64,000 nucleotides of DNA from an uncultured Myxococcaceae bacterium (GTDB lineage Bacteria; Myxococcota_A; Polyangia; Polyangiales; Ga0077539). Position 1 is the first letter of the stretch; every line of letters starts with the position of its first letter. A model generated the notes under the pieces. That model ran no database searches. It was given only the letters and a program-made list of their open reading frames with translations, and was not told where the DNA came from. Positions 24,843-50,437 of this stretch are shown in pieces. The position numbers and the translations under genes are program-made. Location: contig CBIHPK010000001.1 of assembly GCA_966211675.1 (NCBI GenBank), positions 27,814 through 91,813 on the forward strand, written 5' to 3'.

Positions 24843-26552
24843 GTGATACACGGGCCTAGCGTGGGCAACGGGAGGCTGGAGCCGGGAAACCTGATCGCCG
24901 ATGAATTCATCGTCGGCGAGGCGCTGCGCGTCGGGCCGTTCAGCACGGTCTACCGGGCGGTGCGACGGAGCACCGGGCAGCGCTGCGTGGTGGCGGTGCT
25001 CTCTCCGGCGCTGGGCGACGTCGCGACGAGGGAGCGCCTCGCCTCGCTGGCCCTCGAGGGCCCGTCCATCGGGAGCGATCACGTGCCGGAGGTGCTCGAC
25101 GCGGGCGTCGATCCTGGGACAGGCGCGGTGTGGCTGTCGACTGGCGACCTCGAGGGCGAAGGGCTCCCGGCGGTGCTGGCGAAGACCGGTCCGCTGCCCC
25201 TCGCGGTGGTCTCGACGCTGATGCGACAGCTCTTCGACGCCGTGGCGAGCGCCCACGAGGTGGGGGTGACGCACGGCGCCCTGTGCCCCGACGACCTCAT
25301 CGTCGCGCCCGCCTCGAGGGCGAAGGACGAGTGGCGGTTGAGCGTGCTGGGCTTCGGCGTGGGGCGCGGCCAGTCGGAGCTTCGATGGCAGGAGGGCCAT
25401 CGCGAGGACGACCGCGCGACGCTCCGCTCGGCGGACGTGAGGGCCCTCGGGGTGCTGGCCTTCGCGATGCTGTCGGGCGGCCGTGGTGAGGGGGCCGGGG
25501 AGCTCGCTCCGACGGCGCGACTGAAGCAGCTCGGGGTGCCGGAGGCGGGGGCGCTCGGGTGGTTCGACGAGTGGTTCGAGGAGTGCGTCGCCAGCGACCC
25601 GGAGGTGCAGTTTCCCTCGGTGGTGGAGGCCGAGTCCGCGTGGGAGCACGGGGTGGCGGTTCCCTCGCGGTCTGGCCGTGGGCGCTGGGCGCTGGGCGCG
25701 GCGGCGCTGGTGGCCCTCGGGGCGGCGGCGTCGGTGGTCGTGCACCGCGCGGGTCGACCGCCCGGAGCGGGCGCACACTCGGCGGCGCATCGGCCCGTCG
25801 CGACGAGAGCGTGTCCGCCGGGGATGGTGTGGCTGTCGGGGGGGCAGTTCATGATGGGCTCGCGGGACGACCGCGGGGAGTCGGACCAGAGGCCGCGCCA
25901 CGTCGTGAACATCAGAGGGTTCTGCATGGACCGCACGGAGGTCACGGTCGGCGCCTACGGGCGCTACTGGGCGTTGCGGGGTCATCCCCCGGAGCTGGCG
26001 CCGGACGAGGGCTTCAACTGCAACTGGCGTCGGCCCGAGCGGATCGACCACCCGATGAACTGCATCGACTGGCGCTCGGCGCGCGAGTACTGCGAGTGGA
26101 GCGGTCACCCCGGCGGCGCTCGGCGGCTGCCGACGGAGGCGCAGTGGGAGTACGCGGCGCACGGGCAGGAGGGCGGGAGGTACCCGTGGGGCAACGGGGT
26201 GCCGGGCGAGGGGGTGTGCTGGTCGGGGGTCTCGCCGCGGCTCGGCACCTGTCGCGTGGGCGAGTCGGGCCGCGACGTCACCTCGGCGGGCCTCGTCGAC
26301 CTGGGCGGCAACGTCGCCGAGTGGACCGCGGACCTCTACGCCCGCTACGTCGTCGCCGACGCGGCGGTGCGCTTCGACCCCACGGGGCCGGAGTCGACCC
26401 CGGAGGGCTTGAGGGTCTTTCGCGGCGGGACCTGGGCGATCAGCGTCCCGTCGGGCGTGCGCGCGGCGACGAGGGGACGGCACACGGAGACGATGCGCAG
26501 CCGCAGCGTCGGGTGGCGGTGCGCGCGAGGTCCGACCGGCGACGAGCCGTGA
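24843..26552 (+). CDS. Pseudokinase, TM segment, then FGE-sulfatase (SUMF1-like) domain
   Basis: The kinase-like fold is degenerate: VVAVLS in place of VAIK, HGALCPDD (25272-25295) in place of HRDLKPxN, and GFG in place of DFG. TM segment WALGAAALVALGAAASVVV. C-terminal FGE motifs MVWLSGGQFMMGS, RLPTEAQWEYAA, GNVAEWTAD and RVFRGGTW. The GTG start is uncertain (alternative 24861). Confidence 0.85.
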   Translation: MIHGPSVGNGRLEPGNLIADEFIVGEALRVGPFSTVYRAVRRSTGQRCVVAVLSPALGDVATRERLASLALEGPSIGSDHVPEVLDAGVDPGTGAVWLSTGDLEGEGLPAVLAKTGPLPLAVVSTLMRQLFDAVASAHEVGVTHGALCPDDLIVAPASRAKDEWRLSVLGFGVGRGQSELRWQEGHREDDRATLRSADVRALGVLAFAMLSGGRGEGAGELAPTARLKQLGVPEAGALGWFDEWFEECVASDPEVQFPSVVEAESAWEHGVAVPSRSGRGRWALGAAALVALGAAASVVVHRAGRPPGAGAHSAAHRPVATRACPPGMVWLSGGQFMMGSRDDRGESDQRPRHVVNIRGFCMDRTEVTVGAYGRYWALRGHPPELAPDEGFNCNWRRPERIDHPMNCIDWRSAREYCEWSGHPGGARRLPTEAQWEYAAHGQEGGRYPWGNGVPGEGVCWSGVSPRLGTCRVGESGRDVTSAGLVDLGGNVAEWTADLYARYVVADAAVRFDPTGPESTPEGLRVFRGGTWAISVPSGVRAATRGRHTETMRSRSVGWRCARGPTGDEP

Positions 26553-26598
26553 CACCGGTCGGGCGCGGCGACGTATCATTCCGCCGGAGACCCAACAC

Positions 26599-28707
26599 AT
26601 GAACCATCCCACGCTCCCTCTCGTGCTCGGCCTCCTCGCGGCGCAGGGCCTCGGGTGCCAGCGCGATCGCCCCTCGGCCCCGGCCACCCCTCCGGTGCAG
26701 GCCGGTCCCAACGCCCTCGGCCCCGACGGTCGGCCTCGCACCGGGACGCCCGGCACCCCCGCTCGCCCCGCTCGCGTGGGCCTCGCCGTCGGCCTCGTCG
26801 AGGGGCGGATCAAGCCCCCCGACGACAAGCCCAACGACGACGAGGACCGCCACCGGGTGCACCCCGAGTGGTACCCCACGGGCCAGCCGAACAACCCCTA
26901 CCCCGCAGGCACGGTGATCCCGATCGCTCCGCCTCCGCCGGGGCTCTCCATCACCCCGCTGCCCCCGATGCAGCCCATGGGTCAACCGACCATGCAGCCC
27001 ATGGGTCAGCCGTCCATGCAGCCCATCGTCGGCAATGGCGTGACGATGGTTCCGATAGGCCCTTCGGGTCCGAGCCCGACGCCGATGGCCGGCAACGGGG
27101 TGACCATGGTCCCGATGGCGCCGCCGGGTGGGCGACCCTCCGCCCCGACGCCGTCGCCGATGGGTCAGCCACAGGTCCCAATGGGCACCGGGGCCGTCGC
27201 GCAGACCTTCCAGGGGACGCTCGATCCGTCCGCGGAGCGCGACCCGGCCGGGCGCTTCTTCCGGGTGCACCAGGTCTCGCTCCAGCGCGGATCGCGCGTC
27301 GCCGTCACCATGCAGAGCCCTCAGTTCGACACGCTGCTGCGGGTCGAGCCGCCCACCGGGGACGCGGTCGAGAACGACGACGTCACCCGCGAGGACACCA
27401 ACTCCCGCGTCGACTTCACGGCCCCCATCGACGGCCGATACCGCATCGTCGCGACCTCCTACGCCCCGGCCACCGCGGGGGCCTACACCATCCAGGTGAG
27501 CGCCGGAGCGCCGGGGCAGGGGCTCATGGTCACCGGCTCCAACAACAACGCCCCCGACGCGCAGACCGGCCCCGGCGGAACCATCGTCCCCGGCACTCCG
27601 GTCAACGAGTACCTGACCCCGGGCGATCCCTCCTCGGGCGGGCGCTTCGTGCGCGCCTACCGCCTCGAAGGCCGCCAGGGGGACATGGTCACGCTGCGGC
27701 TCAGCTCCACGGGCTTCGACCCCACGCTCGCGCTCATCGCCCCCAACGGACAGCGCTGGAGCAACGACGACACCAGCCCCTCGGACACCAACAGCACCAT
27801 CGCGATGACGCTCCCCGAGGCCGGGAGCTACCGGGTCGAGGTGTCGTCCTACCGACCCGGCGCGACCGGGCCCTTCAGCCTCACGGCGGCCTCGTCGGCC
27901 CGTCCGACGGTGGCCTCCAACGGCGCCCCCGTGGGCAGCGTCGCGGGCCGCGCGGGGCAGGGCAACATGTACGGCGTCTTCGTCGGCATCTCCGACTACG
28001 GCAGCCGCGGCAACCTCTACGGCTGCGCCGACGACGCGCGGCAGCTCGCGCAGGCGTACATCAACGCGCACCTCGGAGCACCGCAGAACTTCGTGGTGCT
28101 CACCGACGCCGAGGCCACCACCTCCGCGGTGGCCCAGGCCTTCCAGACGATGGGGTCGCGCGTCGGTCCCAACGACGTGTTCATGTTCTTCCACTCGGGG
28201 CACGGCAACCGCGCCGAGTCGCACGACACCGCGGCGGACCCTGACGGCTACGTCGAGTCCATCGTGCTGCGCGACGGCGAGATCAACGCGCACCAGATGG
28301 CCACGCTCTTCGACGGGGTGCACGCCGACGTCGACATGCTGGCGCTCGACAGCTGCTACTCCGGGGGCTTCGAGCGCTCCTTCGGCGCGTCGCGCAACCG
28401 CTTCGGGATGTACAGCTCCGAGGAGGACGTGCTCTCCCAGGTGGCCCAGCGCTTCCAGGCGGGGGGCTACCTCTCGTACTTCCTTCGGCGCGGCGTCTCC
28501 GAGGCCGACAACAACCACGACGGCGCCGTGCGAGCGGGCGAGCTCGCGGACTACCTGCACCGCCAGTACGCGCAGAACCTCCAGCAGATGCAGACCCAGG
28601 ACGGCCAGGACGTCGAGACCTGGCAGCACCTGGTGATCAACCGCTCGGGCGTGGCGCTCAACGATCAGCTCTGGCGCTTCCCCCTCGTCAACGCCGTCGC
28701 GCGGTAG
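26599..28707 (+). CDS. Lipoprotein with Pro/Met/Gln-rich linker, two PPC (pre-peptidase C-terminal-like) domains and a C-terminal caspase-like (peptidase C14) domain
   Basis: GGAGA lies 9 nt upstream of the ATG. MNHPTLPLVLGLLAAQGLGC carries a lipobox. Two domains of about 100 aa end in ...GAYTIQVS and ...GPFSLTA. The caspase dyad context is FFHSGHG (His codon at 28201) and LALDSCYSGG (Cys codon at 28354). Confidence 0.85.
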   Translation: MNHPTLPLVLGLLAAQGLGCQRDRPSAPATPPVQAGPNALGPDGRPRTGTPGTPARPARVGLAVGLVEGRIKPPDDKPNDDEDRHRVHPEWYPTGQPNNPYPAGTVIPIAPPPPGLSITPLPPMQPMGQPTMQPMGQPSMQPIVGNGVTMVPIGPSGPSPTPMAGNGVTMVPMAPPGGRPSAPTPSPMGQPQVPMGTGAVAQTFQGTLDPSAERDPAGRFFRVHQVSLQRGSRVAVTMQSPQFDTLLRVEPPTGDAVENDDVTREDTNSRVDFTAPIDGRYRIVATSYAPATAGAYTIQVSAGAPGQGLMVTGSNNNAPDAQTGPGGTIVPGTPVNEYLTPGDPSSGGRFVRAYRLEGRQGDMVTLRLSSTGFDPTLALIAPNGQRWSNDDTSPSDTNSTIAMTLPEAGSYRVEVSSYRPGATGPFSLTAASSARPTVASNGAPVGSVAGRAGQGNMYGVFVGISDYGSRGNLYGCADDARQLAQAYINAHLGAPQNFVVLTDAEATTSAVAQAFQTMGSRVGPNDVFMFFHSGHGNRAESHDTAADPDGYVESIVLRDGEINAHQMATLFDGVHADVDMLALDSCYSGGFERSFGASRNRFGMYSSEEDVLSQVAQRFQAGGYLSYFLRRGVSEADNNHDGAVRAGELADYLHRQYAQNLQQMQTQDGQDVETWQHLVINRSGVALNDQLWRFPLVNAVAR
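26968..27024 (+). repeat. 24-nt tandem coding repeat (about 2.4 copies) encoding MQPMGQP(T/S)
   Basis: atgcagcccatgggtcaaccgacc at 26968-26991, atgcagcccatgggtcagccgtcc at 26992-27015, and a partial atgcagccc at 27016-27024. A second duplicated unit encoding GNGVTMVP follows at about 27031-27120. Confidence 0.8.
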
Positions 28708-33990: not shown

Positions 33991-34066
33991 CGGTGGCAAC
34001 CCGGGTCGCACGGCCCCGCCCGCGACGTCAAGCGCGGCCCCGACGTGATAGCGTGCGGGTGCGCCC

Positions 34067-35107
34067 ATGCGATGCCTCCAGTGCCAGAGCCGCGTGACGC
34101 CGACGATGCGCCGCTGCCTTCGGTGCGGGGCGGTGCTCCCCAAGCCCGGGGCGCTCACCATCGAGACACTGGCCCGGCCGGCCGCGCCCTACGCCTCGGG
34201 CGACCGGGTGGTGGGGCGCTACCGCATCCTCGAAGCGCACGGCTCGGGGCCGCTCGGGACGACGTACCGGGCGCACGATCCGACGGGGCGCACCATGGCC
34301 GTGAAGGTGCTGCCCCCGGCGCTCTTCCCGGGGGACACGGAGCGGCGGGAGTTCGTCGAGCGCTACGGAGCGCTCTGCGGCCGGACGCTGCCCGGCGCGG
34401 CGCTTCCGCTGGAGGTGGGCGTCGACAACGAGGTGGTCTTCGTGGCCTCGACCTGGGTGTACGGCGCGTCGCTGCGCTCCATCGTGCGAGCCTACCGCGC
34501 GGCCGACCGGCGGCTGGAGCGCGACCAGGTGCTGGGCGTATTGCGCGGCGTCTACGAGGGACTGCGCTCGCTGCACGCGATGACCACCCACGGGGCGGTG
34601 TACCCGGAGAACGTCTCGGTCACCTCCGACGCGGTGGTGCTTCTCGACCCGGGCCTCGCCGCCGCGCTGCCGCCGCGGAGGTTCGTCGAGCGCGTCGAGC
34701 GGGCGCCGGAGGTCTGGCCCTACATCGCCCCGGAGCTTCGCGTGGGCAAGCGCGCCAACGCCGGGGCCGACCTCTTCGCGCTCGGGGCCCTCGCCTCGGA
34801 GCTGCTCACCGGCGACCCCGCTCGCTCCTCGTCGCCGGACTTCACCGCCGCCGACCTGGGGACGGCGCTCGAAGGGGCGATGCGCGCCGCGGTCTCGGCG
34901 CAGGCCTCGCGGCGGGTGTCCGCGGTGCCCGACCTGCTCGCCGGGCTCGCGCAGATCGCGGGCGAAGCGTCGCTGCCGCCCTACGCGCCGCTGCCGTCGC
35001 CGTCGGAGATGGTCGACGCTCGCACCCGCCGGGTGATATTGCGGGGCCCCGCGGGCGCCCGTCCGACGCCGCCGCGGTCACCCCGGCGCGAGCGCAAGGT
35101 CGGTTGA
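34067..35107 (+). CDS. Zinc-ribbon plus kinase-like domain protein (predicted pseudokinase)
   Basis: N-terminus CLQC...CLRCG. Retains GSGPLGT, MAVKVL, DPG and YIAPE. The catalytic loop is HGAVYPEN (34589-34612) rather than HRDLKPEN. Confidence 0.75.
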   Translation: MRCLQCQSRVTPTMRRCLRCGAVLPKPGALTIETLARPAAPYASGDRVVGRYRILEAHGSGPLGTTYRAHDPTGRTMAVKVLPPALFPGDTERREFVERYGALCGRTLPGAALPLEVGVDNEVVFVASTWVYGASLRSIVRAYRAADRRLERDQVLGVLRGVYEGLRSLHAMTTHGAVYPENVSVTSDAVVLLDPGLAAALPPRRFVERVERAPEVWPYIAPELRVGKRANAGADLFALGALASELLTGDPARSSSPDFTAADLGTALEGAMRAAVSAQASRRVSAVPDLLAGLAQIAGEASLPPYAPLPSPSEMVDARTRRVILRGPAGARPTPPRSPRRERKVG

Positions 35108-35171
35108 GCGATCGGCGCGCGGAGTCTGCTAGTGTCGAGGATTCCTCTCCGAGTGAGCACCTGAGGTTGGT

Positions 35172-36662
35172 GTGAGCGTCCCCAGCGCGTGTCCGCATTG
35201 TCAGAAGCCGCTGCCCGACGGGTACATCGGCAAGGCCTGCCCGCACTGCCGCGGGGCGCTCGCCAACAAGCGCAAGCGCTCGCTGTCGGGCTTCTCCTTC
35301 CAGGCGATGCAGCCCTCCATGGCCGGGTCGTCTCGGCCGCCGCACTCGCCCCACTCCAGCGGTCCCCCGCGGGAGGTCGTCGAAGACCGCTGGGACCTCC
35401 CCGATCACGGCGTCGAGGCCTCGCGAGAGCGGGGGGCGGTGCCTCCGGCCGCGCCCACGGGCTTTCCCGCGGTGCCGTCGCCCTCTCCCGTCGCCTCGCC
35501 GACGCGCGCCTCGGGGCCCGACCCCATCCGCACGACGGCCCTCCTCGACCCCTTCGCCTGGAACCTCGACCACGCCCAGTCCCCCGCCGCCGCTCCCGCG
35601 CGCAGCAGCGTGCTCGATGTGCGAACGCTGCGGCAGACCGCGCTCGGGGTGGGCGCCCAGGCCGCTCCCTCGCCGCACCCTCCGGGCCCCTCCGCGGCGG
35701 CTGGGCCCTCCATGGCGGCGCTCCGCTCGACCGCGCTGGGCATCGCGCCGATGCCCGCGGCCCCGGCCTCGACGACGGACTTCGAGGACTCCGACGACGT
35801 GTTCGAGGCCGACGCCTTCCCGCTGGTTCGCAGCACCCAGCCCTCCGGGACCACGGTCCCGACGAGGCCTCCTCCGTCGCTCGACTCCGCTGGCGAGATG
35901 CACGAGGGCATCGAGATCCCCTCGTCTCCGGCCCCCGACTTCGAGCTCGGCTCGCACTACGCCGACCTCGAGGGGGGCGACCCCCGCCCCTCGCAGATGC
36001 CGGCCTACTCGCCCCTTCGCGCGCCTCCCTCGCTCCATCCCCCTCCGGCCACTCCGGTCGCGTGGGTCTGGTCCATCGGCGGCGCGGCGCTGGTCCTGTC
36101 CGCGGTGGTCGCGCTGCGCTCGGCCCCGCTGGCGGTCGCCCTCCGCGCGGCCGCCGGGGCGGCGTCGCTGCTCATGCTGGCCCGCTTCGGCGGCCTCTCG
36201 ATGCGGGCGCTGCTGCTCCTGCTGGTGGCCCTCCCGGCGCTGGCGCAGGAGGCGCTCTCCATCGCCTCGCTCTCCCGCGCCGGGGCCGCGGTGCTCACCG
36301 GCGCGCTGGTGCTGCTCCCGGCCGGCGCGTGGATCTCCTCCGATCGCGCCCTGGTGCGCCGCGCGCTCCTGCTCGCGGGCGTCGTGCTGACGGTGGCCGC
36401 GATGCTGATGCCGGGCGGGGTCGCTCGCCCGTGGGCCTTCGGCGCGATGCCGGCGCTGGTGCTGGCGCTGGTGGCGATGGCGACCCCGGTCCGCCCGGTC
36501 TCCGCCGCCCTCACCGTGGCGCTGATGGCGTGGGCCGCGGCGTGCGGCGCGAGCGACGGCGGCCCGACGCTGCCCGCGGTCGCGACGGGCCTGGCGACGG
36601 CCGCGCTGGTGCTGCTGTGCGGCCGGGCGCTGGCCGCGGTGGTGGAGAGCGACGAGGGGTAA
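35172..36662 (+). CDS. Zinc-ribbon, Pro/Ser-rich linker, multi-TM membrane protein (function unknown)
   Basis: GTG start. N-terminus CPHCQKPL...CPHCRG. A low-complexity P/S/A region of about 280 aa. About six hydrophobic helices fill the last roughly 190 aa. Confidence 0.7.
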   Translation: MSVPSACPHCQKPLPDGYIGKACPHCRGALANKRKRSLSGFSFQAMQPSMAGSSRPPHSPHSSGPPREVVEDRWDLPDHGVEASRERGAVPPAAPTGFPAVPSPSPVASPTRASGPDPIRTTALLDPFAWNLDHAQSPAAAPARSSVLDVRTLRQTALGVGAQAAPSPHPPGPSAAAGPSMAALRSTALGIAPMPAAPASTTDFEDSDDVFEADAFPLVRSTQPSGTTVPTRPPPSLDSAGEMHEGIEIPSSPAPDFELGSHYADLEGGDPRPSQMPAYSPLRAPPSLHPPPATPVAWVWSIGGAALVLSAVVALRSAPLAVALRAAAGAASLLMLARFGGLSMRALLLLLVALPALAQEALSIASLSRAGAAVLTGALVLLPAGAWISSDRALVRRALLLAGVVLTVAAMLMPGGVARPWAFGAMPALVLALVAMATPVRPVSAALTVALMAWAAACGASDGGPTLPAVATGLATAALVLLCGRALAAVVESDEG

Positions 36663-38330: not shown

Positions 38331-38349
38331 GAGGGTGCAGGTATAGGTC

Positions 38350-38363
38350 GCCGAGGCCTCGGC
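38350..38363. promoter_or_regulatory. Perfect 14-bp palindrome GCCGAGGCCTCGGC in the divergent Hsp70/giant-gene intergenic region (candidate operator)
   Basis: Read directly from the sequence. It lies 20 nt upstream of the Hsp70 start (38330) and about 70 nt upstream of ATG 38434. Confidence 0.3.
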
Positions 38364-38433
38364 GCGCGACCCGCTTTCTGGTGCATCCGCCGCGGTGGGC
38401 GCCATGATCGCCGCGAAGGTTCCATGGTCTGCG

Positions 38434-41400
38434 ATGCGCTCTGACGACGAGGCCTTCCTGGAGCTGGAGGACGAGGCCCCCGAGGCGCCGTCGACGGACC
38501 CCACGCCGCACCTCCCCGAGGCCCGCGACGACGAGGCCTTCCTCGAGCTCGACGAGGTCGCCCAGAGCCCCCTCGCTCGGGCCGTCCGGGTGGTCAGCGA
38601 CGACGACCTGCGCGCCGTGACCGCCCTCGCCGAGGACGACCGCCCCCTCCTCGACGCGCTCTACCCCGCGCAGCCCGACCTCGCGGCCCGCCCTCCCTCC
38701 GCCGCCGCCCTCTCCGAGCGCCTCGCCTTCGTGCGCGCCGCGCTCAACCAGGTCACCCGCCGCGGCGCCGAGTGGCGCGCCCGCGCGGAGGTCGCCGGAT
38801 CGGCCCTCGCCCGACGCCTCGAAGCCCTCTCCGGCCACGGGGAGCTCAGCGCCGCCGCGCTCGCCGAGCTCATGGCCTGGCACGAGCGGGCCCTCGAAGC
38901 CCTCATCACCCGCGAGGCCGGCGACGCCCGGGCGCTGCACCCGCCGGAGCTGCGCCGCCTCGACGAGGAGGCCGCCCGCCGTGGCCTCAGCGCCGACTTC
39001 GCCCGCGCCGTCGCCGAGCGCCTCGGGGTCGCTTTACACCGCGATGTATCCCTGGCGTGGTCGCCCTGCGACGCGCTGCCGGGCGCTCCCCGCACCCTCG
39101 ACGCCGCCGCCGCGGCCATCACGGAGAGCGTCGCCCACGCAGTGGTGGCCCTGCGCGACGGGGCCCTCTCGGCGTGGCTCCGCGCCAACCGCGGTGAGCC
39201 CGCCCTCGTCGCGATCGCCCTGGAGTCCGAGGCCCTCGCTCGCGGCCCTGACACCGACGCGGCGCTCATCGGCGCCTGGACCCTGGCCTGGGCCATGGGC
39301 CGCGAAGGCGTCGCCGTCGACGGGCTCGCGGTGACCTCGCCGGAGCTGCTCCGCACGCACCTGCGCGCGGGTCGCCTGGATGCGTCGAGGGTGCGCTCGC
39401 AGGGCCGGGCGCTGGGCGCGTGGTTTCGCCGCGAGGGCCACGGCGCGGTGGCGGCCGCCTGCGAGGCGCTGGCGAGGGACGAGGCCCACGCGGAGCTGCG
39501 GCTCTCCTGGGCGCTGGGCGAGCCGCTGCGGCTGGCGTCCAAGCCCGTCGCCGATCCGACGGCCCTCGCGAGGGAGGTGCTGCGCCGGCCCGAGGCGCGC
39601 GCCGAGGCGCTCGATCGCTGGCGCGACGGGACGCTGCTCGCGTGGATGGACTCGCTCCCCCGGGCGAGGCGCGACGCGGCGTGGATCGAGGACCTCTCCT
39701 CCCCGCGCGCCCACGACGCCGACGAGGGGGCGTTCTGGCGAGGGGTCTATCGTCGCGCGCCGAGGGCCTCGCTTCGGGTCTTCGTGGAGGTGGGCTCCTC
39801 GACCCGGGCGGTGCGCTTCGAGGGCATCGGCGACCTGCGCTCGACGGCCCGCGTCGCGGCCGCCTGGGGCGCACTGAGAGAGGCCCACCTGAGGGCGGAG
39901 CTGCACGCGTGGCTGGCCCGCTCGGCGCCGGGGCTGGAGCTCGACGCCCCCCCGAGCGCCGCTGACGACGGGGCGCTGCTTCGGCTGCTCTGGTCGCTCG
40001 GAGCGACGGGCCTGGTGCTGGCTCGCGGCGCGTCGGGCTCGGCCATCGACACGCCGGCGGACCTGGTGCTCGCGTGGCGTCGTGCTCCGCTGGTGCTGGA
40101 GGCCGCGCTCGCCTCGGGCCTCGTGGGCGAGTGGCTGCGGCGCTTCTTCGCGCAGGACGGGGTCTCCGGGCTGAGCCTCGGCGACGCGATGACCCGCTGG
40201 GGCGTCGGCTTCGGCGCGGGGGTGGCGCCCTCTGGCGTGGCGGCGCTGCGGTGCGCGCTGCTCTGCGGGCTCACGGCGATCCCCAGCGACCCGACCGCGA
40301 GCGGAGGCCCCGATGGACGGGCGCTGGTGGGCTTCGTCGGCATCGACCCGTCCCGTCGCGACGACGCCGTGTGGTCCGAGCTGCTCGATGCGCCGGGCGA
40401 TCCGCTGGGGCAGGGGACCGCGCTCCTCTGGGCCGCGAGGCACGCGCCCGCGCTCGGGGTGCTCGCCGCGGCGGGCGACGGAGCCGCTCGCGAGGCGGTG
40501 CGGGACGCGCTGCTGGCCGCGGGGCGACCGGTCCCCTCGGCGCCCCTCGCGGAGACCCTCGCGGACCAGGCCGCCCAGGCCGAGCGCCGCGCCCGGCAGA
40601 GGGCCCTGCTGGAGGAGAGCGAGCGCATCGCGGCGCAGCGGGAGGCGGCGCGCTCGCAGCTGGAGCGCGAGGCCGCGAGGGTGGCCGCGGAGCGCGAGGC
40701 GGCGAGGCGAGAGGCGACCAGGGACGCGCTGCGGCGCGAGGTCGACCGGGAGGTCGCGCGCATCGAGTCGGAGCGCGAGGCGGCGAGGCGCGCCCACGAG
40801 CGGGCCCTCGCGGCGCTGCAGGCCGAGCGGGCGCTGGCGGAGGCCGAGCACGCGAGGGCGATGACCGAGCTCTCGCTGGCGAGGTCGCGCTCCTCGGGAG
40901 ACGGGGCCGAGGTCGTGGACGCCGCGGCGCTCGAGGCGCGCTGGCGCGAGGCGGCGAGGCGGGCGGCCGAGGAGGAGGTCCTTCGGGCCGTGGCGCGCTC
41001 GGAGGAGGAGCTGCGCGAGGCGGCGCTTCGGGCGGCGGAGCAGGCCGCGGCGGAGGAGGTGCGCCTCGCGGCGGAGTCCCTGGCGGCGGAGCGGGCGAGG
41101 CGGGAGCGCGCCGAGGCGGCGCTGTCCTCGACGCTGGGCGAGCTGCTGGCCCGCGAGGGCGCCCTGCGCGCGGAGGCGGAGCGAGCGGCCGAGGAGGCGA
41201 CGCGGGTGGCGCTCTCCCTGGCCGAGGGCGAGACGCAACGGGTCGAGGCCGAGCAGCGGGCCGAGGAGGCCACGCGGCGCGCGGAGTCCGCGAAGGCCGA
41301 GCGCGTGGCGGCCGAGTGGGCCGCGCAGCAGGCGAGGGCCGAGGAGGAGATCGAGGCCCTGGCGAAGGCCGAGCGGGAGCGCCGAGCGGAGGCGACGCGC

Positions 41401-43248
41401 CTCGCGCTGGAGGAGACGGGGCCGCGCCCCGCGCTGGCCGAGGAGCCCGCGGTGGACGAGGGCTTCACCGAAGACCCGACCGCCGAGGCCGCGGACGACG
41501 TCGGCGAGGAGCTGCTCAGCAGCGACCGCCACGAGGTGGCCTACGACCGCCTCGCGGTGGCCTACGAGGGCGTCGACGACGCGGCGCTCGCGGGCCTGCG
41601 AGACGCGGTGGACGCCTGGTCCCGGGGGAGGCCGAGGCACCCGCTGGCCGCGCTCGGGTCGGCGATGGTGGTCGACGCGGTGACGATGATCCCGGCCTTC
41701 GAGGCGCACGTGGCGACGCGGCTGGAGTCGCGCTCCATCGAGCGGAGGGTGGTGTCCGGCGACGACGACGAGGAGGCCGTGGAGGTGGGCGCCGAGGCCT
41801 CCGCCGGGGGCGACGAGGCCCTCGACGCATGGCTGCTCGACCTCGCGCCCGTCGACACCTGGGACCGCCTCACCGTCGACGCCCCGCTCGCCCTCCGACC
41901 CCGCCGCGAGCCCTGCCCCCGGTGCGCCGTCGACGCACCCCCGGGCATTCCCACCGGCCGCTTACGCTGTGAGGTATGCGACGCCCTCGGCACGGTGGTG
42001 TGCGTCCGCTGCGGCGGCTTCGGTCGCTCCCGCTGCGGCCGATGCGGCGGCAACGGCCAGGTGCTCGTCCCCGGCGGCGGAACCCGTCGCTGCCCCGCCT
42101 GCGACGGCCGCGGCGACGTCGCGTGCGGGTGCTCTCTCGGTCGGGTGGCGTGCGGCGCGTGCGAGGGCGTCGGCCACGGCCCGTGCCCCACCTGCGGCGC
42201 CGACGGCGTGGTGGAGACCCGCCCCTGGGTGTCCCAGTCGGCGCTCGGCGTGCGCGCCCGAGCGGTCGTCGCGGTGGGCCTGCCCCCGGAGCTCGCCGCC
42301 GAGGTGGGCGTCCCCGGCAGCGAGGCCGACGCGGTGGTGCACATCGAGGCCGACGCGATCGACCCCGCCGCCCTGGCGCGCGAGCTCCCTCACGACCACC
42401 TCGGCGCCGCGCTCGCCGACCTGCTCTCCGCGGAGACCGCCCGCGCCTCCGAGGGGCAGCGGGTGACCCGCCAGCAGGTGGTGGTCTGGCGCTACCCCGC
42501 GTGGCGAGTACAGGTGCATGTAGACGGCGAGGCCTTCACGCTCTGGGTGCACGGCGCCCGCAGGCGGGTGTGGGCCGAGCGCTCGCCCCTCGACGCCGCC
42601 ACCGAATCCGCCGTCGCCTCGGTGCGCGCGCTCATCGCCTCCGACGCCCTCGACGCCGCCATCGACCGACTGGTCGCCCTCGCGAGTGAAGACCCTGGCC
42701 ACGCCGGGGCCCGCGACGCGGCGACGGCGCTCGGCGACGCGGTGCTGGCGATGGCCGAGCGGGGCGAACTCTACGAGGCCCAGCGGCTGGCCGGGCTGGG
42801 CGCGGCGGTGCGCTGGCCCGATGCGGTGTCGCGGCTGGTGCAGGCCGAGCGCGTGGCGGGTCGCCGGCTCCACAAGCGCTCCTCCTGGGCGCTGCTGGAG
42901 GACGCCCGCTCGGCGCTGCAGCGAGGCCTCGACGCGAGGGCGCTCGACCTGCTGGGCGAGCTCCACGCCGTGGCCCCAGGCGACGCCGAGGCCGAGGCGC
43001 TGGCGGGCGAGCTCGGTCGGCGGCTCGACGCACAGGCCGGGGCGCTGGTGTCGCGAGGCGCCCTCGACGACGCGACGGCGCTGCTCTCTCGGGTGGACTC
43101 CTCCGGCGCCCCGGCGGTGCGATCGGCGATGGCCACCTCCGCGGCCTCGCTCCAGCGAGCGAGGAGGCGCTCGGCGCTGCGGAGGGCGGCGGTGGTGGCC
43201 GCGGCGCTTCTGCTGGTCGCGCTGGCGGTGCTCGCGCTGCTGCGGTGA
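38434..43248 (+). CDS. Giant (about 1604 aa) tail-anchored protein: acidic N-terminus, large helical region, charged coiled coil, 6x CxxCxGxG zinc-finger cluster, helical C-terminal domain, C-terminal TM
   Basis: Single uninterrupted ORF 38395..43248; ATG 38434 (MRSDDEAFLELEDE) is preferred, with GTG 38395 and ATG 38404 as alternatives. E/R/A-rich heptad-like region at about 40555-41425. CxxCxGxG motifs at 41913-42210. C-terminus RRAAVVAAALLLVALAVLALLR. Confidence 0.85.
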   Translation: MRSDDEAFLELEDEAPEAPSTDPTPHLPEARDDEAFLELDEVAQSPLARAVRVVSDDDLRAVTALAEDDRPLLDALYPAQPDLAARPPSAAALSERLAFVRAALNQVTRRGAEWRARAEVAGSALARRLEALSGHGELSAAALAELMAWHERALEALITREAGDARALHPPELRRLDEEAARRGLSADFARAVAERLGVALHRDVSLAWSPCDALPGAPRTLDAAAAAITESVAHAVVALRDGALSAWLRANRGEPALVAIALESEALARGPDTDAALIGAWTLAWAMGREGVAVDGLAVTSPELLRTHLRAGRLDASRVRSQGRALGAWFRREGHGAVAAACEALARDEAHAELRLSWALGEPLRLASKPVADPTALAREVLRRPEARAEALDRWRDGTLLAWMDSLPRARRDAAWIEDLSSPRAHDADEGAFWRGVYRRAPRASLRVFVEVGSSTRAVRFEGIGDLRSTARVAAAWGALREAHLRAELHAWLARSAPGLELDAPPSAADDGALLRLLWSLGATGLVLARGASGSAIDTPADLVLAWRRAPLVLEAALASGLVGEWLRRFFAQDGVSGLSLGDAMTRWGVGFGAGVAPSGVAALRCALLCGLTAIPSDPTASGGPDGRALVGFVGIDPSRRDDAVWSELLDAPGDPLGQGTALLWAARHAPALGVLAAAGDGAAREAVRDALLAAGRPVPSAPLAETLADQAAQAERRARQRALLEESERIAAQREAARSQLEREAARVAAEREAARREATRDALRREVDREVARIESEREAARRAHERALAALQAERALAEAEHARAMTELSLARSRSSGDGAEVVDAAALEARWREAARRAAEEEVLRAVARSEEELREAALRAAEQAAAEEVRLAAESLAAERARRERAEAALSSTLGELLAREGALRAEAERAAEEATRVALSLAEGETQRVEAEQRAEEATRRAESAKAERVAAEWAAQQARAEEEIEALAKAERERRAEATRLALEETGPRPALAEEPAVDEGFTEDPTAEAADDVGEELLSSDRHEVAYDRLAVAYEGVDDAALAGLRDAVDAWSRGRPRHPLAALGSAMVVDAVTMIPAFEAHVATRLESRSIERRVVSGDDDEEAVEVGAEASAGGDEALDAWLLDLAPVDTWDRLTVDAPLALRPRREPCPRCAVDAPPGIPTGRLRCEVCDALGTVVCVRCGGFGRSRCGRCGGNGQVLVPGGGTRRCPACDGRGDVACGCSLGRVACGACEGVGHGPCPTCGADGVVETRPWVSQSALGVRARAVVAVGLPPELAAEVGVPGSEADAVVHIEADAIDPAALARELPHDHLGAALADLLSAETARASEGQRVTRQQVVVWRYPAWRVQVHVDGEAFTLWVHGARRRVWAERSPLDAATESAVASVRALIASDALDAAIDRLVALASEDPGHAGARDAATALGDAVLAMAERGELYEAQRLAGLGAAVRWPDAVSRLVQAERVAGRRLHKRSSWALLEDARSALQRGLDARALDLLGELHAVAPGDAEAEALAGELGRRLDAQAGALVSRGALDDATALLSRVDSSGAPAVRSAMATSAASLQRARRRSALRRAAVVAAALLLVALAVLALLR

Positions 43249-45257
43249 GAGTGCTTCCCTCGCGCTGGGGCGGGGGTATAGGCTGCGCGCCCGTGAGGTT
43301 CCGAGGACTCTTCGCGACGCTGGGGCTCCTGGGGACTCTTCTGGGCGGGGCCTCCTGCCTCGGGGAGATCGACGACTACACGCAGCAGCCGCTGGCCACG
43401 CACGTCACCGACTGGCGCGACGAGGTGATCTACCAGCTCCTGGTCGATCGCTTCGCCGACGGCGACACGGGCAACGACGTGCGCGTCGACCGCGGCTCGC
43501 TCGGTCGCTACCAGGGCGGCGACTGGCTCGGGGTCATCCAGCAGCTCGACTACCTCCAGCGCCTCGGGGTCACCACCCTCTGGATCTCCCCCGTCGTGCG
43601 CAACGTCGACACCGACGCGGGCTTCGACGGCTACCACGGCTACTGGGCCTCCGACCTCACGGTGCTCAACCCCCACTTCGGCGACCTCGCGATGCTCCGC
43701 CGGATGGTGCGCGAGTGCCACGCCCGTCAGATCAAGGTCATCGTCGACATCGTGACCAACCACATGGGTCAGATGTTCTTCTATGACATCAACAACAACG
43801 GCCGACCCGACGAGTTCCTCGGCGGCAGCGGCGTCGTGGTGCCCTTCCAGAACCCGGGCGGCGTGCCGAGCGCCATCTCTCGCGTCACCGAGTACGACCC
43901 CGACTTCAACCTCCGCGGCCCGGTGCAGGCCTTCACCTCCCTCGGCCCCGCTGGCGACGCGCCGGTCATCTTCCTCGACATGCCGGAGATCTTCCGGGTG
44001 CCGCCGCGCTCGGACATCCTCCCCTCGCAGGCCATCCTCGCCCGACCGGAGGGCTACCACCGCCGCGGTCGCATCACGAGCTACGAGAACGTCGACAGCC
44101 AGCCCGGAGAGCAGACCCTCCTCGGTGACTTCCCGGGTGGCCTGAAGGACGTCAACACCGAAGACCCCCGGGTGCGCCTCGCGATGGTCGAGGCCTACTG
44201 GCGCTGGGTCCAGCTCACGGACATCGACGGCTTCCGCATCGACACGCTCAAGCACGTGGAGCACGGGTTCTGGCAATACTTCGGGGCCCAGATCCGGCAG
44301 CGCGCGATGAGCGCGGGCAAGCAGCGCTTCTTCCTCTTCGGTGAGGCCTTCGACGGCGACGACCGCCTCGTGGGCTCGTACACCAACCCCAACGAGATGG
44401 ACTCGGTCTTCTACTTCCCGCAGAAGTACCGGGTCTTCGACAACATCTTCCAGTGCGGCGTGGGCAACACCCGGGACGTCGAGGCGCTCTACACCGAGCG
44501 CCTGCGCGACTTCTCGGCGACGCCGCAGCCCCTCGGCATCGGCGTCGCGCCCACGCAGGCGCTGGTCAACTTCATGGACAACCATGACGTGTCGCGCTTC
44601 CTCTATGGAATGAACCCGACCGTGGTGGACAACATCCGGGGCGTCGACCGGAGAGGGCCCGACTGCTCCTCCGGGCTGGTCAATGGCAACAACCCCGCGG
44701 ACGTGGAGCGCTTCCGCCCCCGGCTGCTGGCGGCGCTCACGTACCTGCTCACGGAAGACGGCATTCCCTGCATCTATTACGGCACCGAGCAGGACTTCCG
44801 CGGCGGCAATGACCCCTCCAACCGGGAGCGCCTCTGGGATACCGGATATCCCACCAGCGAGACCCGCCGCGACGGCTCCGTGAGCACCTTCGGATGGACC
44901 CGCCGGCTGATCGCCGCGCGCCGCACCTACCCCGCGCTGCGCCGCGGGAGCTTCTCGGTGCGCTGGACCACGGAGCACACGGGCGCCGAGCAGGACGCGG
45001 GGATGCTCGCGTTCGAGCGGGTGGACGGGGCGAATTTCGCGCTGGTGGTGATCCACGCAAAGGACGGCACGGCGGAGACGAGCACGGCCCGGGCGGGGGG
45101 CAGCGCGATGACCGTGAGCCAGCCCGAGGGCACGGAGCTGGTGAACATCCTGGGCACCGAGCCTCGGACGGCGACCGTCGGCAATGGCGGACAGGTGACG
45201 GTGTCATTGGGACCATGGCAGAGCGCGGTGTTTGTTCCTCGATCGCAGGTGCGCTGA
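43245..45257 (+). CDS. GH13 alpha-amylase-family glycoside hydrolase, lipoprotein
   Basis: GH13 regions DIVTNH, GFRIDTLKHV, GEAFDG and FMDNHDVSRF. The GTG at 43245 overlaps the upstream stop as GTGA. An alternative GTG at 43293 gives MRFRGLFATLGLLGTLLGGASC with a lipobox. Confidence 0.88.
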   Translation: MRVLPSRWGGGIGCAPVRFRGLFATLGLLGTLLGGASCLGEIDDYTQQPLATHVTDWRDEVIYQLLVDRFADGDTGNDVRVDRGSLGRYQGGDWLGVIQQLDYLQRLGVTTLWISPVVRNVDTDAGFDGYHGYWASDLTVLNPHFGDLAMLRRMVRECHARQIKVIVDIVTNHMGQMFFYDINNNGRPDEFLGGSGVVVPFQNPGGVPSAISRVTEYDPDFNLRGPVQAFTSLGPAGDAPVIFLDMPEIFRVPPRSDILPSQAILARPEGYHRRGRITSYENVDSQPGEQTLLGDFPGGLKDVNTEDPRVRLAMVEAYWRWVQLTDIDGFRIDTLKHVEHGFWQYFGAQIRQRAMSAGKQRFFLFGEAFDGDDRLVGSYTNPNEMDSVFYFPQKYRVFDNIFQCGVGNTRDVEALYTERLRDFSATPQPLGIGVAPTQALVNFMDNHDVSRFLYGMNPTVVDNIRGVDRRGPDCSSGLVNGNNPADVERFRPRLLAALTYLLTEDGIPCIYYGTEQDFRGGNDPSNRERLWDTGYPTSETRRDGSVSTFGWTRRLIAARRTYPALRRGSFSVRWTTEHTGAEQDAGMLAFERVDGANFALVVIHAKDGTAETSTARAGGSAMTVSQPEGTELVNILGTEPRTATVGNGGQVTVSLGPWQSAVFVPRSQVR

Positions 45258-48311: not shown

Positions 48312-50384
48312 CTACTTCCCGTTGGTGGCCTTGAAGGACAGGTAGGTCTGCTCCTTCAGGCCGCGCTCGTAGTCCGCGAGGAGGCGCATGCCCTCCTGCG
48401 GGCGCAGCCGGTCGGCCTTGATGGCCTGATCGATCTGCGACTTCATCTTCTGCGCGAGGTTGTTGGGGAAATACTGGGTCATCGCCAGCACCTCCGCGAC
48501 GGTGTTACCCGGCAGGGTCTCTTCGATGTAGTAGCCCCGCTCGTCGTCCTCATCGAGGAAGACGTGCACCTCGTTCACGCGGCCGAAGAGGTTGTGCAGG
48601 TCGCCCATGATGTCCTGATAGGCGCCCGTCAGGAAGATGCCGAGGTAGTACGGGGAGTTCGTCACCTCGTGCAGGCGCAGCGTGTCGCGCGTGTCGCTGA
48701 GGTCGATGAACTTCGACACCTTCCCGTCGGAGTCGCAGGTGATGTCCACCAGCGTGGTCTCCAGCGTGGGCTCCTCGTTCAGGCGATGAATGGGGACGAT
48801 CGGGAAGAGCTGCCCCAGCGCCCAGTGGTCCAGCAGCGACTGGAACACCGAGAAGTTGCAGATGTGCTGGTCCGCGAGCTGGTTGTCGAGGTCGCCGAGC
48901 TCGTCCGGGCGCTCCTCCGGGTCGAGGGTCTTCGCGCGGTTCTGGATGGCCTCGGCGATCTCCCAGTAGAGCGACTCGACGCGGGCCTTCACCGTGAGGT
49001 CGAGCATCCCCAGCTCGAACATCTTCTGCGAAGACTCCTTGATGTCCGTGAGGTCATGCCAGCTCTCCATCAGGTTGCGGTCCGTGAGGTGTCGCTGGAT
49101 GTAGAGCAGGTCGCGGATGAGCTTGTGGTCCACCGGCGGCGACTGCGCGGGCTCGCTCGGGGTCTTCTCGATGGAGCCGAAGGCCTCCACCACCAGCACC
49201 GAGTGGTGCGCCACCACGGCGCGGCCGGACTCGCTCACGATGGTCGGGTGCGCCACCTTCTCTTCATCACAGATGTCCATGATGTTGTAGACGATGTTGT
49301 CGGCATACTCCTGCACCGTGTAGTTCATTGAACTATGGAAGGTGCTGGCGCTCCCGTCGTAGTCGACGGCCAGTCCGCCGCCCACGTCGATGTACTCCAC
49401 CTCGTGGCCCATCTGGCGGAGCTTGGCGTAGTACCGCGCGGCCTCGCGCACCGCGCGCTTCATGATCAGGATGTCGGGCACCTGCGACCCGATGTGGAAG
49501 TGCAGCAGCTTGAAGGCCCCGGGCATCCCGGCCTCGCGCAGCATCAGGCACGCGTCGAGGATCTCCGCCGTGCTCAGACCGAACTTCGCGTGCTCTCCGC
49601 CCGACGTGGCCCACTTGCCCGCGCCCTTGGCCAGCAGCCGGACGCGCAGCCCCACCATCGGCTCGACGCTCATCTCCTTGGCGACGCGGATGATCGCCGC
49701 GACCTCGGCGAGCTTCTCCGCCACCAGGATCACCCGCTTGCCCAGCTTGCGCCCCACCAGCGCGGTGCGGATGAAGGTGTCGTCCTTGTAGCCGTTGCAG
49801 ACGATGAGCGACTCCGGGTCGCTGTGCTGCGAGAGCCCGGCGAACACCTCGGGCTTCGAGCCCACCTCGATGCCGTAGTGGAAGGGCTCGCCCGCCACCA
49901 GGATCTCCTCCAGCACCTCGCGGAGCTGGTTGACCTTGATGGGGTACACGCCGCGATACACGCCCTGGTATCGGTTCTCCGCGATGGCGCGGATGAAGGC
50001 GCCGTTGATCGCCCGCACCCGGTGGTGGAGGATGTCCTGGAAGCGGATGAGCAGGGGGGTCTGGAAGCCCTCCTCTCGCGCCTCCTTCACCACCTCCAGC
50101 AGCGGAATCGAGGCGCCCTGCTCCTGGAGCGGCCGGGCCGCCATGTTGCCATCGGCGTTGACGGTGAAGTACCCCGATCCCCACCGGTCGATGAGGTAGA
50201 GGGCCAGGGCGTCATCGACGGTCCAGGGCGTGGGCTCGGTGGAGTCGGCGGCGGGGGCGGGAGCGGGCGTAGCGTCCAATGAATCAAGACCCTTCTTGCT
50301 GCGAAATGGAGCGGCCCCGGTGGTCGGGGCCTTCGCAAGCGGCGCGATTGTGGGCAAGCGCACCCTTGCGTCAAGGCCCACCAA
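48312..50384 (-). CDS. speA: Biosynthetic arginine decarboxylase
   Basis: Strong SpeA-like sequence throughout (YPIKVNQ, HIGSQ, GGGLAVDYDG, CDSDG). The start is uncertain. The track ORF begins at TTG 50384; an in-frame TTG at 50279 is preceded by AAGAAGGG and would give 655 aa. Confidence 0.9.
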   Translation of the reverse strand: MVGLDARVRLPTIAPLAKAPTTGAAPFRSKKGLDSLDATPAPAPAADSTEPTPWTVDDALALYLIDRWGSGYFTVNADGNMAARPLQEQGASIPLLEVVKEAREEGFQTPLLIRFQDILHHRVRAINGAFIRAIAENRYQGVYRGVYPIKVNQLREVLEEILVAGEPFHYGIEVGSKPEVFAGLSQHSDPESLIVCNGYKDDTFIRTALVGRKLGKRVILVAEKLAEVAAIIRVAKEMSVEPMVGLRVRLLAKGAGKWATSGGEHAKFGLSTAEILDACLMLREAGMPGAFKLLHFHIGSQVPDILIMKRAVREAARYYAKLRQMGHEVEYIDVGGGLAVDYDGSASTFHSSMNYTVQEYADNIVYNIMDICDEEKVAHPTIVSESGRAVVAHHSVLVVEAFGSIEKTPSEPAQSPPVDHKLIRDLLYIQRHLTDRNLMESWHDLTDIKESSQKMFELGMLDLTVKARVESLYWEIAEAIQNRAKTLDPEERPDELGDLDNQLADQHICNFSVFQSLLDHWALGQLFPIVPIHRLNEEPTLETTLVDITCDSDGKVSKFIDLSDTRDTLRLHEVTNSPYYLGIFLTGAYQDIMGDLHNLFGRVNEVHVFLDEDDERGYYIEETLPGNTVAEVLAMTQYFPNNLAQKMKSQIDQAIKADRLRPQEGMRLLADYERGLKEQTYLSFKATNGK

Positions 50385-50437
50385 CGACTGTCACGCGATC
50401 TCCGTCAGAACAGCGCCCGCCGCGCTACGCTCGCGCG

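Follow-up and report, generated by a model that had tools for sequence, protein, structure and literature searches.

The giant gene and its product

The window analyzed here is a 64,000-nucleotide stretch from an uncultured Myxococcaceae bacterium (GenBank assembly GCA_966211675.1, contig CBIHPK010000001.1, positions 27,814 to 91,813). We describe a gene in this window that encodes a giant protein of 1604 amino acids (aa), together with a divergently transcribed Hsp70 gene immediately upstream (Table 1). The giant open reading frame (ORF) begins with ATG at 38434 and ends with a stop codon at 43246–43248 on the plus strand. Long chance ORFs are common in this DNA because the window has a GC content of 72 to 79%, and an 891-aa ORF is found antisense to the giant gene. 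The GC content at the three codon positions (~0.83/0.58/0.94) is unbroken in every 600-bp block across the giant ORF, which excludes a split of the ORF by a frameshift or sequencing error. In the database we found one identical entry and 24 further full-length homologs (~1600 to 1800 aa, 41 to 90% identity) with the same module order, and the start at 38434 matches the N-termini of the homologs. The existence of these proteins rules out a chance ORF in 77% GC DNA as well as a fusion artifact of several independent genes. It was concluded that the giant ORF is a genuine single gene. All homologs come from metagenome-assembled genomes (MAGs) of Polyangiales, Myxococcales or "Deltaproteobacteria" and all are annotated as unnamed or "hypothetical" proteins. 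The family is rare, uncharacterized and lineage-restricted, and it occurs in uncultured, poorly studied Polyangiales-like myxobacteria.

An initial annotation, made from the sequence of the locus, had divided the protein into six successive parts, and a survey of ortholog length and domain order found all six present and conserved in the proposed order. Two of its descriptions, a heptad-bearing coiled coil and a helical stretch of 330 aa, did not hold up (see below). Domain order, tail anchor and Cys cluster are conserved among the homologs, and the module lengths are near-constant: 158–165 aa (linker), 94–103 aa (Zn cluster), 117–124 aa, 185–191 aa and 29 aa. Pfam and NCBIfam scans with the whole protein and with seven segments (E ≤ 5) gave nothing significant, in agreement with the earlier remark that the protein carries no enzymatic motif; matches to K-cyclin, DUF5351, EAD11 and TPR_19 were considered noise. 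The giant protein brings together one known domain type and two domains without relatives.

Table 1. Coordinates of the giant gene, its encoded modules and the adjacent Hsp70 gene in the window. AF2, AlphaFold2; NBD, nucleotide-binding domain; pLDDT, predicted local distance difference test; SBDbeta, beta subdomain of the substrate-binding domain (SBD); TM, transmembrane; TPR, tetratricopeptide repeat.
Feature	Residues	Coordinates	Strand	Basis and remarks
Giant gene	1604 aa	38434..43248	+	Tail-anchored product; stop included; ORF/translation, uniform codon-position GC, homologs of equal length and order
Disordered acidic N-terminus	aa 1–50	38434..38583	+	pLDDT < 50; motif conservation
Twin DDEAFLEL motifs	aa 4–11 and aa 32–39	38443–38466 and 38527–38550	+	DPTPxLP between copies
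N-domain	aa 51–705	38584..40548	+	AF2 fold, mostly helical; no sequence or fold matches
E/R/A-rich spacer	aa 706–1000	40549..41433	+	Predicted charged single alpha-helix; composition, salt-bridge pattern, no heptads
Short acidic linker	aa 1001–1030	41434..41523	+	Sequence; first 9 modeled residues (aa 1021–1029) pLDDT < 50
Alpha/beta module hosting the zinc-finger insertion	aa 1031–1385	41524..42588	+	AF2; 53 invariant columns; length rigidly conserved
Tandem DnaJ-type Cys-rich zinc-finger domain (predicted)	aa 1161–1257	41914..42204	+	16 invariant Cys; profile match to 1EXK
TPR-like helical repeat domain (predicted)	aa 1386–1575	42589..43158	+	9–10 paired AF2 helices; Foldseek; adjoins membrane
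Tail anchor (predicted)	TM helix aa 1585–1603 (43186–43242)	43159..43245	+	Basic patch RARRRSALRR, TM helix, terminal Arg; only hydrophobic segment
Hsp70 gene	553 aa	36669..38330	-	PF00012; NBD, altered linker, SBDbeta, ends in helix A
Intergenic region between Hsp70 and giant gene		38331..38433	.	103 bp, divergent

In the AF2 model of the C-terminal part (aa 1021–1604, pLDDT 92.8), a Cys cluster (aa 1161–1254) sits between strands of the alpha/beta module. It is made up of eight Cys pairs, mostly CxxCxGxG, and every one of its Cys residues is invariant in the family. Comparison of the Zn-module family profile with the PDB gave the Cys-rich domain of E. coli DnaJ (1EXK) as the best match (E = 3.3e-5), followed by DNAJA2, EMB2737, Ydj1, anti-TRAP and BSD2; the profile also aligned weakly into the C-terminal domain I (CTD-I) of DNAJA2 (E = 4.6e-4). 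On account of the eight Cys pairs and the profile match to the DnaJ Cys-rich domain, we assign the cluster as a tandem DnaJ-type zinc-finger domain with a predicted complement of about four Zn sites. The zinc-finger cluster noted in the initial annotation is therefore real; its DnaJ-type character and its insertion in a new alpha/beta module had been overlooked. DnaJ_C (PF01556) had no match in the giant protein in the Pfam segment scan. Foldseek comparison of the C-terminal part was dominated by matches to its TPR-like portion. No J domain was found anywhere in the giant protein: PF00226 was unmatched in the whole protein and in the seven segments at E ≤ 5, and no HPD motif is conserved among the invariant columns of the family alignment. 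Since the J domain is absent, the giant protein is not a J-domain protein. A word-indexed search with the Zn-module profile returned three fragments only because CxxC words dominated the candidates, and a metagenome scan added family members only.

The helical region following this module was examined by Foldseek, and the matches to aa 1386–1575 were TPR proteins (APC/C subunits, BamD, LapB, and OGT) with a probability of ~1, E ~1e-3 and low TM-scores. By sequence the best Pfam match is TPR_19 (E = 0.092), and no TPR chain was retrieved from the PDB with the family profile. The model weakly suggests a TPR fold, and "TPR-like" seems the right level of claim for this domain, which has 22 invariant columns in the family alignment. 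The initial annotation had considered about 330 aa to be helical and plausibly TPR-like. This description fits only the final ~190 aa before the anchor; the first ~120 aa are mixed beta/alpha and form part of the finger-bearing module. In one MAG (L005:10001–14824, protein P0010) the TPR-like region contains ~100 aa of Gly/Arg-rich nonsense sequence, probably an assembly frameshift.

The last TPR-like helix runs unbroken in the AF2 model through the basic patch into the TM helix, and this type of ending, a hydrophobic helix followed by one Arg as originally described, is kept in 22 of 25 homologs. No signal peptide was found in the giant protein. The protein is predicted to be tail-anchored with its N-terminus inside. 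A cytoplasmic location is expected because Zn-Cys sites require a reducing compartment, a signal peptide is absent, and a basic patch precedes the single C-terminal TM helix. These features agree with the earlier proposal that tail anchoring leaves the bulk of the protein in the cytoplasm.

The acidic N-terminus is present as first described, and it holds two copies of the motif DDEAFLEL. Both copies are found in all full-length homologs with an intact N-terminus. The motif resembles the FtsZ C-terminal peptide in three residues only, a similarity that we retain merely as a lead. The N-domain that follows is the best conserved part of the giant protein, with 38 invariant columns of which 14 are Trp. 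Its AF2 model has a mean pLDDT of 87.5; helices predominate, and there are four to six beta-hairpins. The N-domain matched no Pfam or NCBIfam family and no PDB sequence, and Foldseek retrieved no similar fold from the PDB, where the best E was 2, or from BFVD, where it was 0.55. A profile search with the N-domain detected only 59 clusters among 1.84 billion representatives. The ~650 aa in which no motif had been recognized are real (aa 51–705); that they form a discrete folded domain with a family of its own had been overlooked. Internal repeats in the N-domain received weak support (hhalign probability at most 66%). A match in charge between the acidic motifs and this domain was also looked for and gave no signal, the N-domain being near neutral.

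The N-domain is also found in non-giant paralogs. These carry twin [FYW]LE motifs before the domain (twin GLLxPR in the most distant members) and, immediately after the domain, a single TM helix at around residue 710 to 830. After the TM helix there is either an extracytoplasmic tail, which contains an LCCL domain in P0031 and P0028, or nothing, so that P0033 and P0036 are tail-anchored. Because the motifs accompany the N-domain in the paralogs too, each with a TM helix, we conclude that twin motif and N-domain are an evolutionary unit, always located at the cytoplasmic face of the membrane. The twin motifs were also considered as a client of the Hsp70; this idea is weakened by the presence of the motifs in Hsp70-less paralogs.

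The spacer between the N-domain and the acidic linker consists of 29% Ala, 21% Glu and 18% Arg, with 41% charged and 14.6% large hydrophobic residues. It had been described as heptad-like and as a long coiled coil. We found no heptad periodicity: the power of hydrophobic residues at 3.5 and 7 was not above that of shuffled sequence, and none of the 28-aa windows reached an a/d occupancy of 0.625 (best 0.50). Opposite-charge pairs are enriched instead at i,i+4 (z = 4.2–4.5) and at i,i+3 (z = 2.3). The pattern is similar in 22 homologs, in which at most 15% of the 28-aa windows reach an a/d occupancy of 0.625; i+3/i+4 opposite-charge pairs are enriched in nearly all homolog spacers, and 36 to 49% of the residues are charged. 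With enriched i,i+4 charge pairs, few hydrophobic residues and no heptad signal, the spacer looks like a charged single alpha-helix (SAH) rather than a coiled coil. ER/K SAH domains are known, for example in myosin VI and myosin X. Like these domains, the region is very rich in E+R, has opposite charges at i,i+4 and few hydrophobic residues, contains long stretches free of proline and serves as a spacer; it differs in being Ala-rich (~29%) and Arg- rather than Lys-based and in having a few Gly/Ser breaks. If fully helical, it would span ~44 nm (~30 to 74 nm at most among the homologs), making it one of the longer predicted bacterial SAH spacers. It is the sole module of variable length, ranging from 197 to 493 aa among homologs. 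A ruler-like function, suggested at first, was rejected since the length is not fixed.

The Hsp70 neighbor and the conserved gene pairing

The Hsp70 beside the giant gene matches PF00012 with 122 bits, which confirms the neighbor named in the initial annotation; the score falls well short of the equivalog cut-offs for DnaK and HscA. The 103-bp intergenic region contains no sigma-70 consensus site and no terminator. We aligned the window protein and 33 orthologs (n = 34) with E. coli DnaK and HscC, and DnaK numbering is used below. The residues for phosphate binding and catalysis (D8, G10, T11, T12, E171, D194, G197, G198, T199, and D201) are invariant in the 34 Hsp70 orthologs. R167 is replaced by A/G/S, N170 by P, and T173 by D; these are residues that we take, from the DnaK-DnaJ literature, to be J-domain contacts of DnaK. 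The interdomain linker VLLLD is changed to x(D/E)(Y/W)(H/R)G. The arch and pocket of the SBD are remodeled: M404 is replaced by R/K and S427 by R, and A429 is missing. The chain stops near DnaK residue 529, within helix A, and has no lid. SBDbeta is the best conserved part of this Hsp70, which suggests a fixed ligand. As judged from this alignment, the ATP site is intact and the J-domain interface and the hydrophobic linker appear to be lost. With its altered linker, replaced R167/N170/T173 and no lid, the protein is not a canonical DnaK-like Hsp70. The lidless build and the loss of the J-contact residues had gone unnoticed before. Identity to E. coli HscC is 29% and confined to the NBD. Orthology to HscC was rejected on this ground and since HscC retains the J-contact residues and the linker.

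The link to the Hsp70 extends beyond the window. An orthologous Hsp70 (61 to 90% identity) lies divergently upstream of the giant gene in ~14 of 20 informative genome or metagenome loci, and the giant proteins of these linked loci span 42 to 93% identity. The gap between the two genes is ~55 to 130 bp, with the exception of L008 (1.2 kb). In genome GCA_046351555.1 (giant protein P0016), where the adjacency is lost, an orthologous Hsp70 (P0105, 67% identity) is found on another contig. Loci of paralogs with the N-domain only never have an Hsp70 neighbor, so the association with Hsp70 tracks the C-terminal Zn/TPR part of the giant protein. The neighbors scanned from 26.4 to 48.3 kb include neither a DnaJ nor a GrpE gene. 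A second Hsp70 subgroup (43 to 50% identity) was considered as a partner and rejected, since its contexts are unrelated. One member of this lidless-size subgroup (P0132, 48% identity) is encoded by the last gene of an operon (L030:4401–10659) that also codes for a 790-aa ASKHA-like protein, with a DFGTSNT motif and a Met/Pro/Ala/Gln-rich tail, and three unknown proteins.

Other neighbors are kept in the closest clade only: an ABC ATPase, a peptidyl-prolyl isomerase, a kinase-like gene, a zinc-ribbon membrane protein, and a GH13 amylase. The kinase-like gene (34052–35107, plus strand), seen in the closest relatives only, has an N-terminal CxxC...CxxC zinc ribbon and a weak Pkinase match (36 bits) and may encode a pseudokinase. 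Between it and the Hsp70 gene lies a gene at 35157–36662 (plus strand), whose 501-aa product belongs to no Pfam family; it has a zinc ribbon at its N-terminus, a long low-complexity stretch rich in Pro, Ser and Ala, and several TM segments at its C-terminus. The GH13 alpha-amylase family gene (43245–45257, plus strand) starts at or just past the stop of the giant ORF; this neighborhood is kept in the close clade only. Further away, a gene at 26413–28707 (plus strand) encodes a protein with PPC and caspase (Peptidase_C14) domains that matches the PADLOC "caspase" model with 57 bits. A GC dip to 0.655 is found at 48312–50390 (minus strand), with a 693-aa ORF whose second-position GC is unusually low (0.38) and which could be a foreign or unusual gene. 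Elsewhere, in the same genome as P0016, paralog P0031 (N-domain, TM helix and LCCL domain; L027:8001–14449) is encoded beside genes for EAD1 and CHAT protease, both typical of conflict systems.

Possible functions of the pair

The initial annotation had suggested a scaffold, and this part of the proposal is reasonable. Our preferred reading, held with somewhat less than even confidence, is that the giant protein is a J-less, DnaJ-like scaffold that is anchored in the membrane and has a dedicated Hsp70 as its working partner. We infer a physical interaction between the two proteins, its direction of action and a client as follows. The giant protein would be a cytoplasmic scaffold on the inner membrane, held by its C-terminal tail anchor. 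A TPR-like platform would lie flush with the membrane, and the adjoining alpha/beta module would bear the tandem zinc fingers (~4 Zn). From this Zn/TPR base the predicted single alpha-helix arm may reach ~30 to 45 nm out and carry at its tip the 650-aa head domain, preceded by the twin acidic [FY]LE peptide motifs. The base could serve as a J-domain-less, DnaJ-like platform that binds a client or the lidless Hsp70. Presumably, the Hsp70 is recruited and regulated by fixed binding to the scaffold and not by a J domain; such fixed docking is proposed because the Hsp70 has apparently lost the J-acting residues and the hydrophobic linker yet retains the ATP site. The head on the arm may capture or position a cytoplasmic partner relative to the membrane.

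A bolder version of this proposal, which we regard as rather unlikely, is a J-domain-independent Hsp70 machine. The lidless Hsp70 would be permanently docked via SBDbeta, the tandem fingers and the TPR platform would replace the J protein, and the ~45-nm arm and the head would bring a cytoplasmic target to the membrane, with the head and the finger-bearing alpha/beta module both being new folds. To our knowledge, well-studied Hsp70s are all driven by J-domain proteins. An Hsp70 with an ATP site and replaced J contacts and linker, encoded beside a J-less finger partner, would be a natural test case for rewired Hsp70 allostery, and the giant protein offers two confidently predicted domains without structural or sequence relatives.

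Several points weigh against a scaffold that works with the Hsp70. Its link to the Hsp70 is one of gene neighborhood and co-occurrence only, and divergent transcription does not imply co-regulation. The adjacency is absent in six informative loci (L001, L005, L006, L009, L015, and L035). Stand-alone copies of the C-terminal module beside Hsp70s elsewhere were not found by the word-indexed profile search and the metagenome scan. The equivalent of DnaK K70 is ambiguous in the Hsp70 and may be the invariant K82 (in RGSK). Plant and algal DnaJE proteins, defined as a class by DnaJ-type fingers without J or G/F (Gly/Phe-rich) regions, have been reported to act independently of Hsp70 (PMC7865324). 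An alternative that we consider rather unlikely is an Hsp70-independent holdase or assembly factor, in which the fingers and the TPR platform stabilize membrane-proximal clients alone, as do the DnaJE proteins BSD2, ORANGE, and ZnJ6, and the Hsp70 is merely a frequent neighbor. The DnaJ-type finger without J domain or G/F region fits this alternative, as do the missing adjacency in six loci and the reports that DnaJE proteins are active without DnaK or ATP and that ZnJ6 is membrane-associated (PMC7865324). It is harder to reconcile with the divergent adjacency across the depth of the family and with the retention of an orthologous Hsp70 where the genes are unlinked, and the lost J interface of the Hsp70 fits a non-J partner.

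The reverse relationship, in which the Hsp70 is a dedicated biogenesis chaperone that keeps the giant protein in solution and brings its C-terminal TM helix to the membrane, appears improbable. The giant protein would then be the client, with a job of its own (tether or signaling scaffold) unrelated to chaperoning. In its favor, E. coli DnaK reportedly directs DjlC, a tail-anchored protein, into the membrane (PMC8215388), the giant protein has a conserved tail anchor, and the strongly conserved SBDbeta suggests a single fixed ligand. Against it, the remodeled SBD arch and pocket do not look like an obvious binding site for a hydrophobic TM segment, and the tail-anchored or bitopic N-domain paralogs have no such adjacent Hsp70. 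We find it similarly improbable that the protein is a membrane-to-cytoplasm tether or signaling scaffold defined by its head, with the twin motifs and the N-domain as its core and with an arm and Zn/TPR base that set distance and oligomeric state only. The N-terminal unit does have its own family, in which a TM helix at ~710 to 830 is followed by an LCCL tail or serves as tail anchor; the twin motifs accompany the N-domain, and the spacer varies in length. This explanation leaves the Hsp70 pairing and the rigid conservation of the Zn and TPR parts (53 and 22 invariant columns) unexplained. A component of a conflict or defense system of multicellular bacteria, of the type that uses Hsp70, caspase-like proteases and effector-associated domains, is very improbable. 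Hsp70-containing conflict systems have been described (PMC7159879), one paralog adjoins EAD1 and CHAT genes, and a caspase-domain gene lies ~10 kb upstream in the window. But no PADLOC model matches the giant protein or the Hsp70, the described Hsp70 systems (Kaur et al.) center on GTPases, tubulin or GrpE, which are all absent here, and the flanking genes are housekeeping-like and differ between loci.

Comparison with known systems

The fingers of the giant protein are assigned by motif and profile to the same domain family as the Cys-rich domain of class A DnaJ. In class A J proteins (DnaJ, Ydj1, and DNAJA2), as in the giant protein, CxxCxGxG fingers are inserted in a beta-rich module, which is CTD-I for the DnaJ finger. 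The giant protein differs from them by eight Cys pairs instead of four, by the lack of a J domain, a G/F region and a detectable DnaJ_C, and by its size (1604 aa) and membrane anchor. With DnaJ-type fingers and no J or G/F regions, it falls under the operational definition of DnaJE. ZnJ6 and ORANGE are membrane-associated (PMC7865324, PMC12063368). The known DnaJE proteins (BSD2, ORANGE, PSA2, and ZnJ6) are small, reside in plastids and have a single finger domain, unlike the tandem finger, giant bacterial protein and Hsp70 gene pairing found here.

A looser analog is LapB (YciM), a cytoplasmic TPR protein that is anchored in the inner membrane and has a Cys4 metal-binding domain; its TPR domain is among the Foldseek matches (4zlh and 8v24). 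It differs from the giant protein in its N-terminal anchor, rubredoxin-type site and length (~390 aa), has no arm or head, and shows no sequence similarity.

The closest functional analog is probably the HscC-DjlB/DjlC system of E. coli, which would be analogous and not homologous. HscC works with the tail-anchored J proteins DjlB and DjlC, which are encoded beside hscC (PMC8215388). Common to both systems are a specialized Hsp70 of ~555 aa encoded beside a tail-anchored cytoplasmic partner and an Hsp70 activity at the inner membrane, reported for E. coli (PMC8215388) and suggested here by the genes. The giant-protein family profile did not match DjlB, DjlC or YbeR/T/U. Whereas DjlB and DjlC are J proteins, the partner in the window has no J domain; HscC, unlike the window Hsp70, keeps R167, N170, T173, a VILTD linker and the other DnaK features compared. 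The hscC locus of E. coli K-12 (L043, 676000–688000) contains djlB and djlC together with two genes of the TPR-like Sel1 type (ybeQ, ybeT) and two DUF1266 genes. These Sel1 genes form a loose parallel to the TPR-like module fused into the giant protein. The myxobacterial pair may be a further example of chaperone machinery put at the membrane by a tail anchor.

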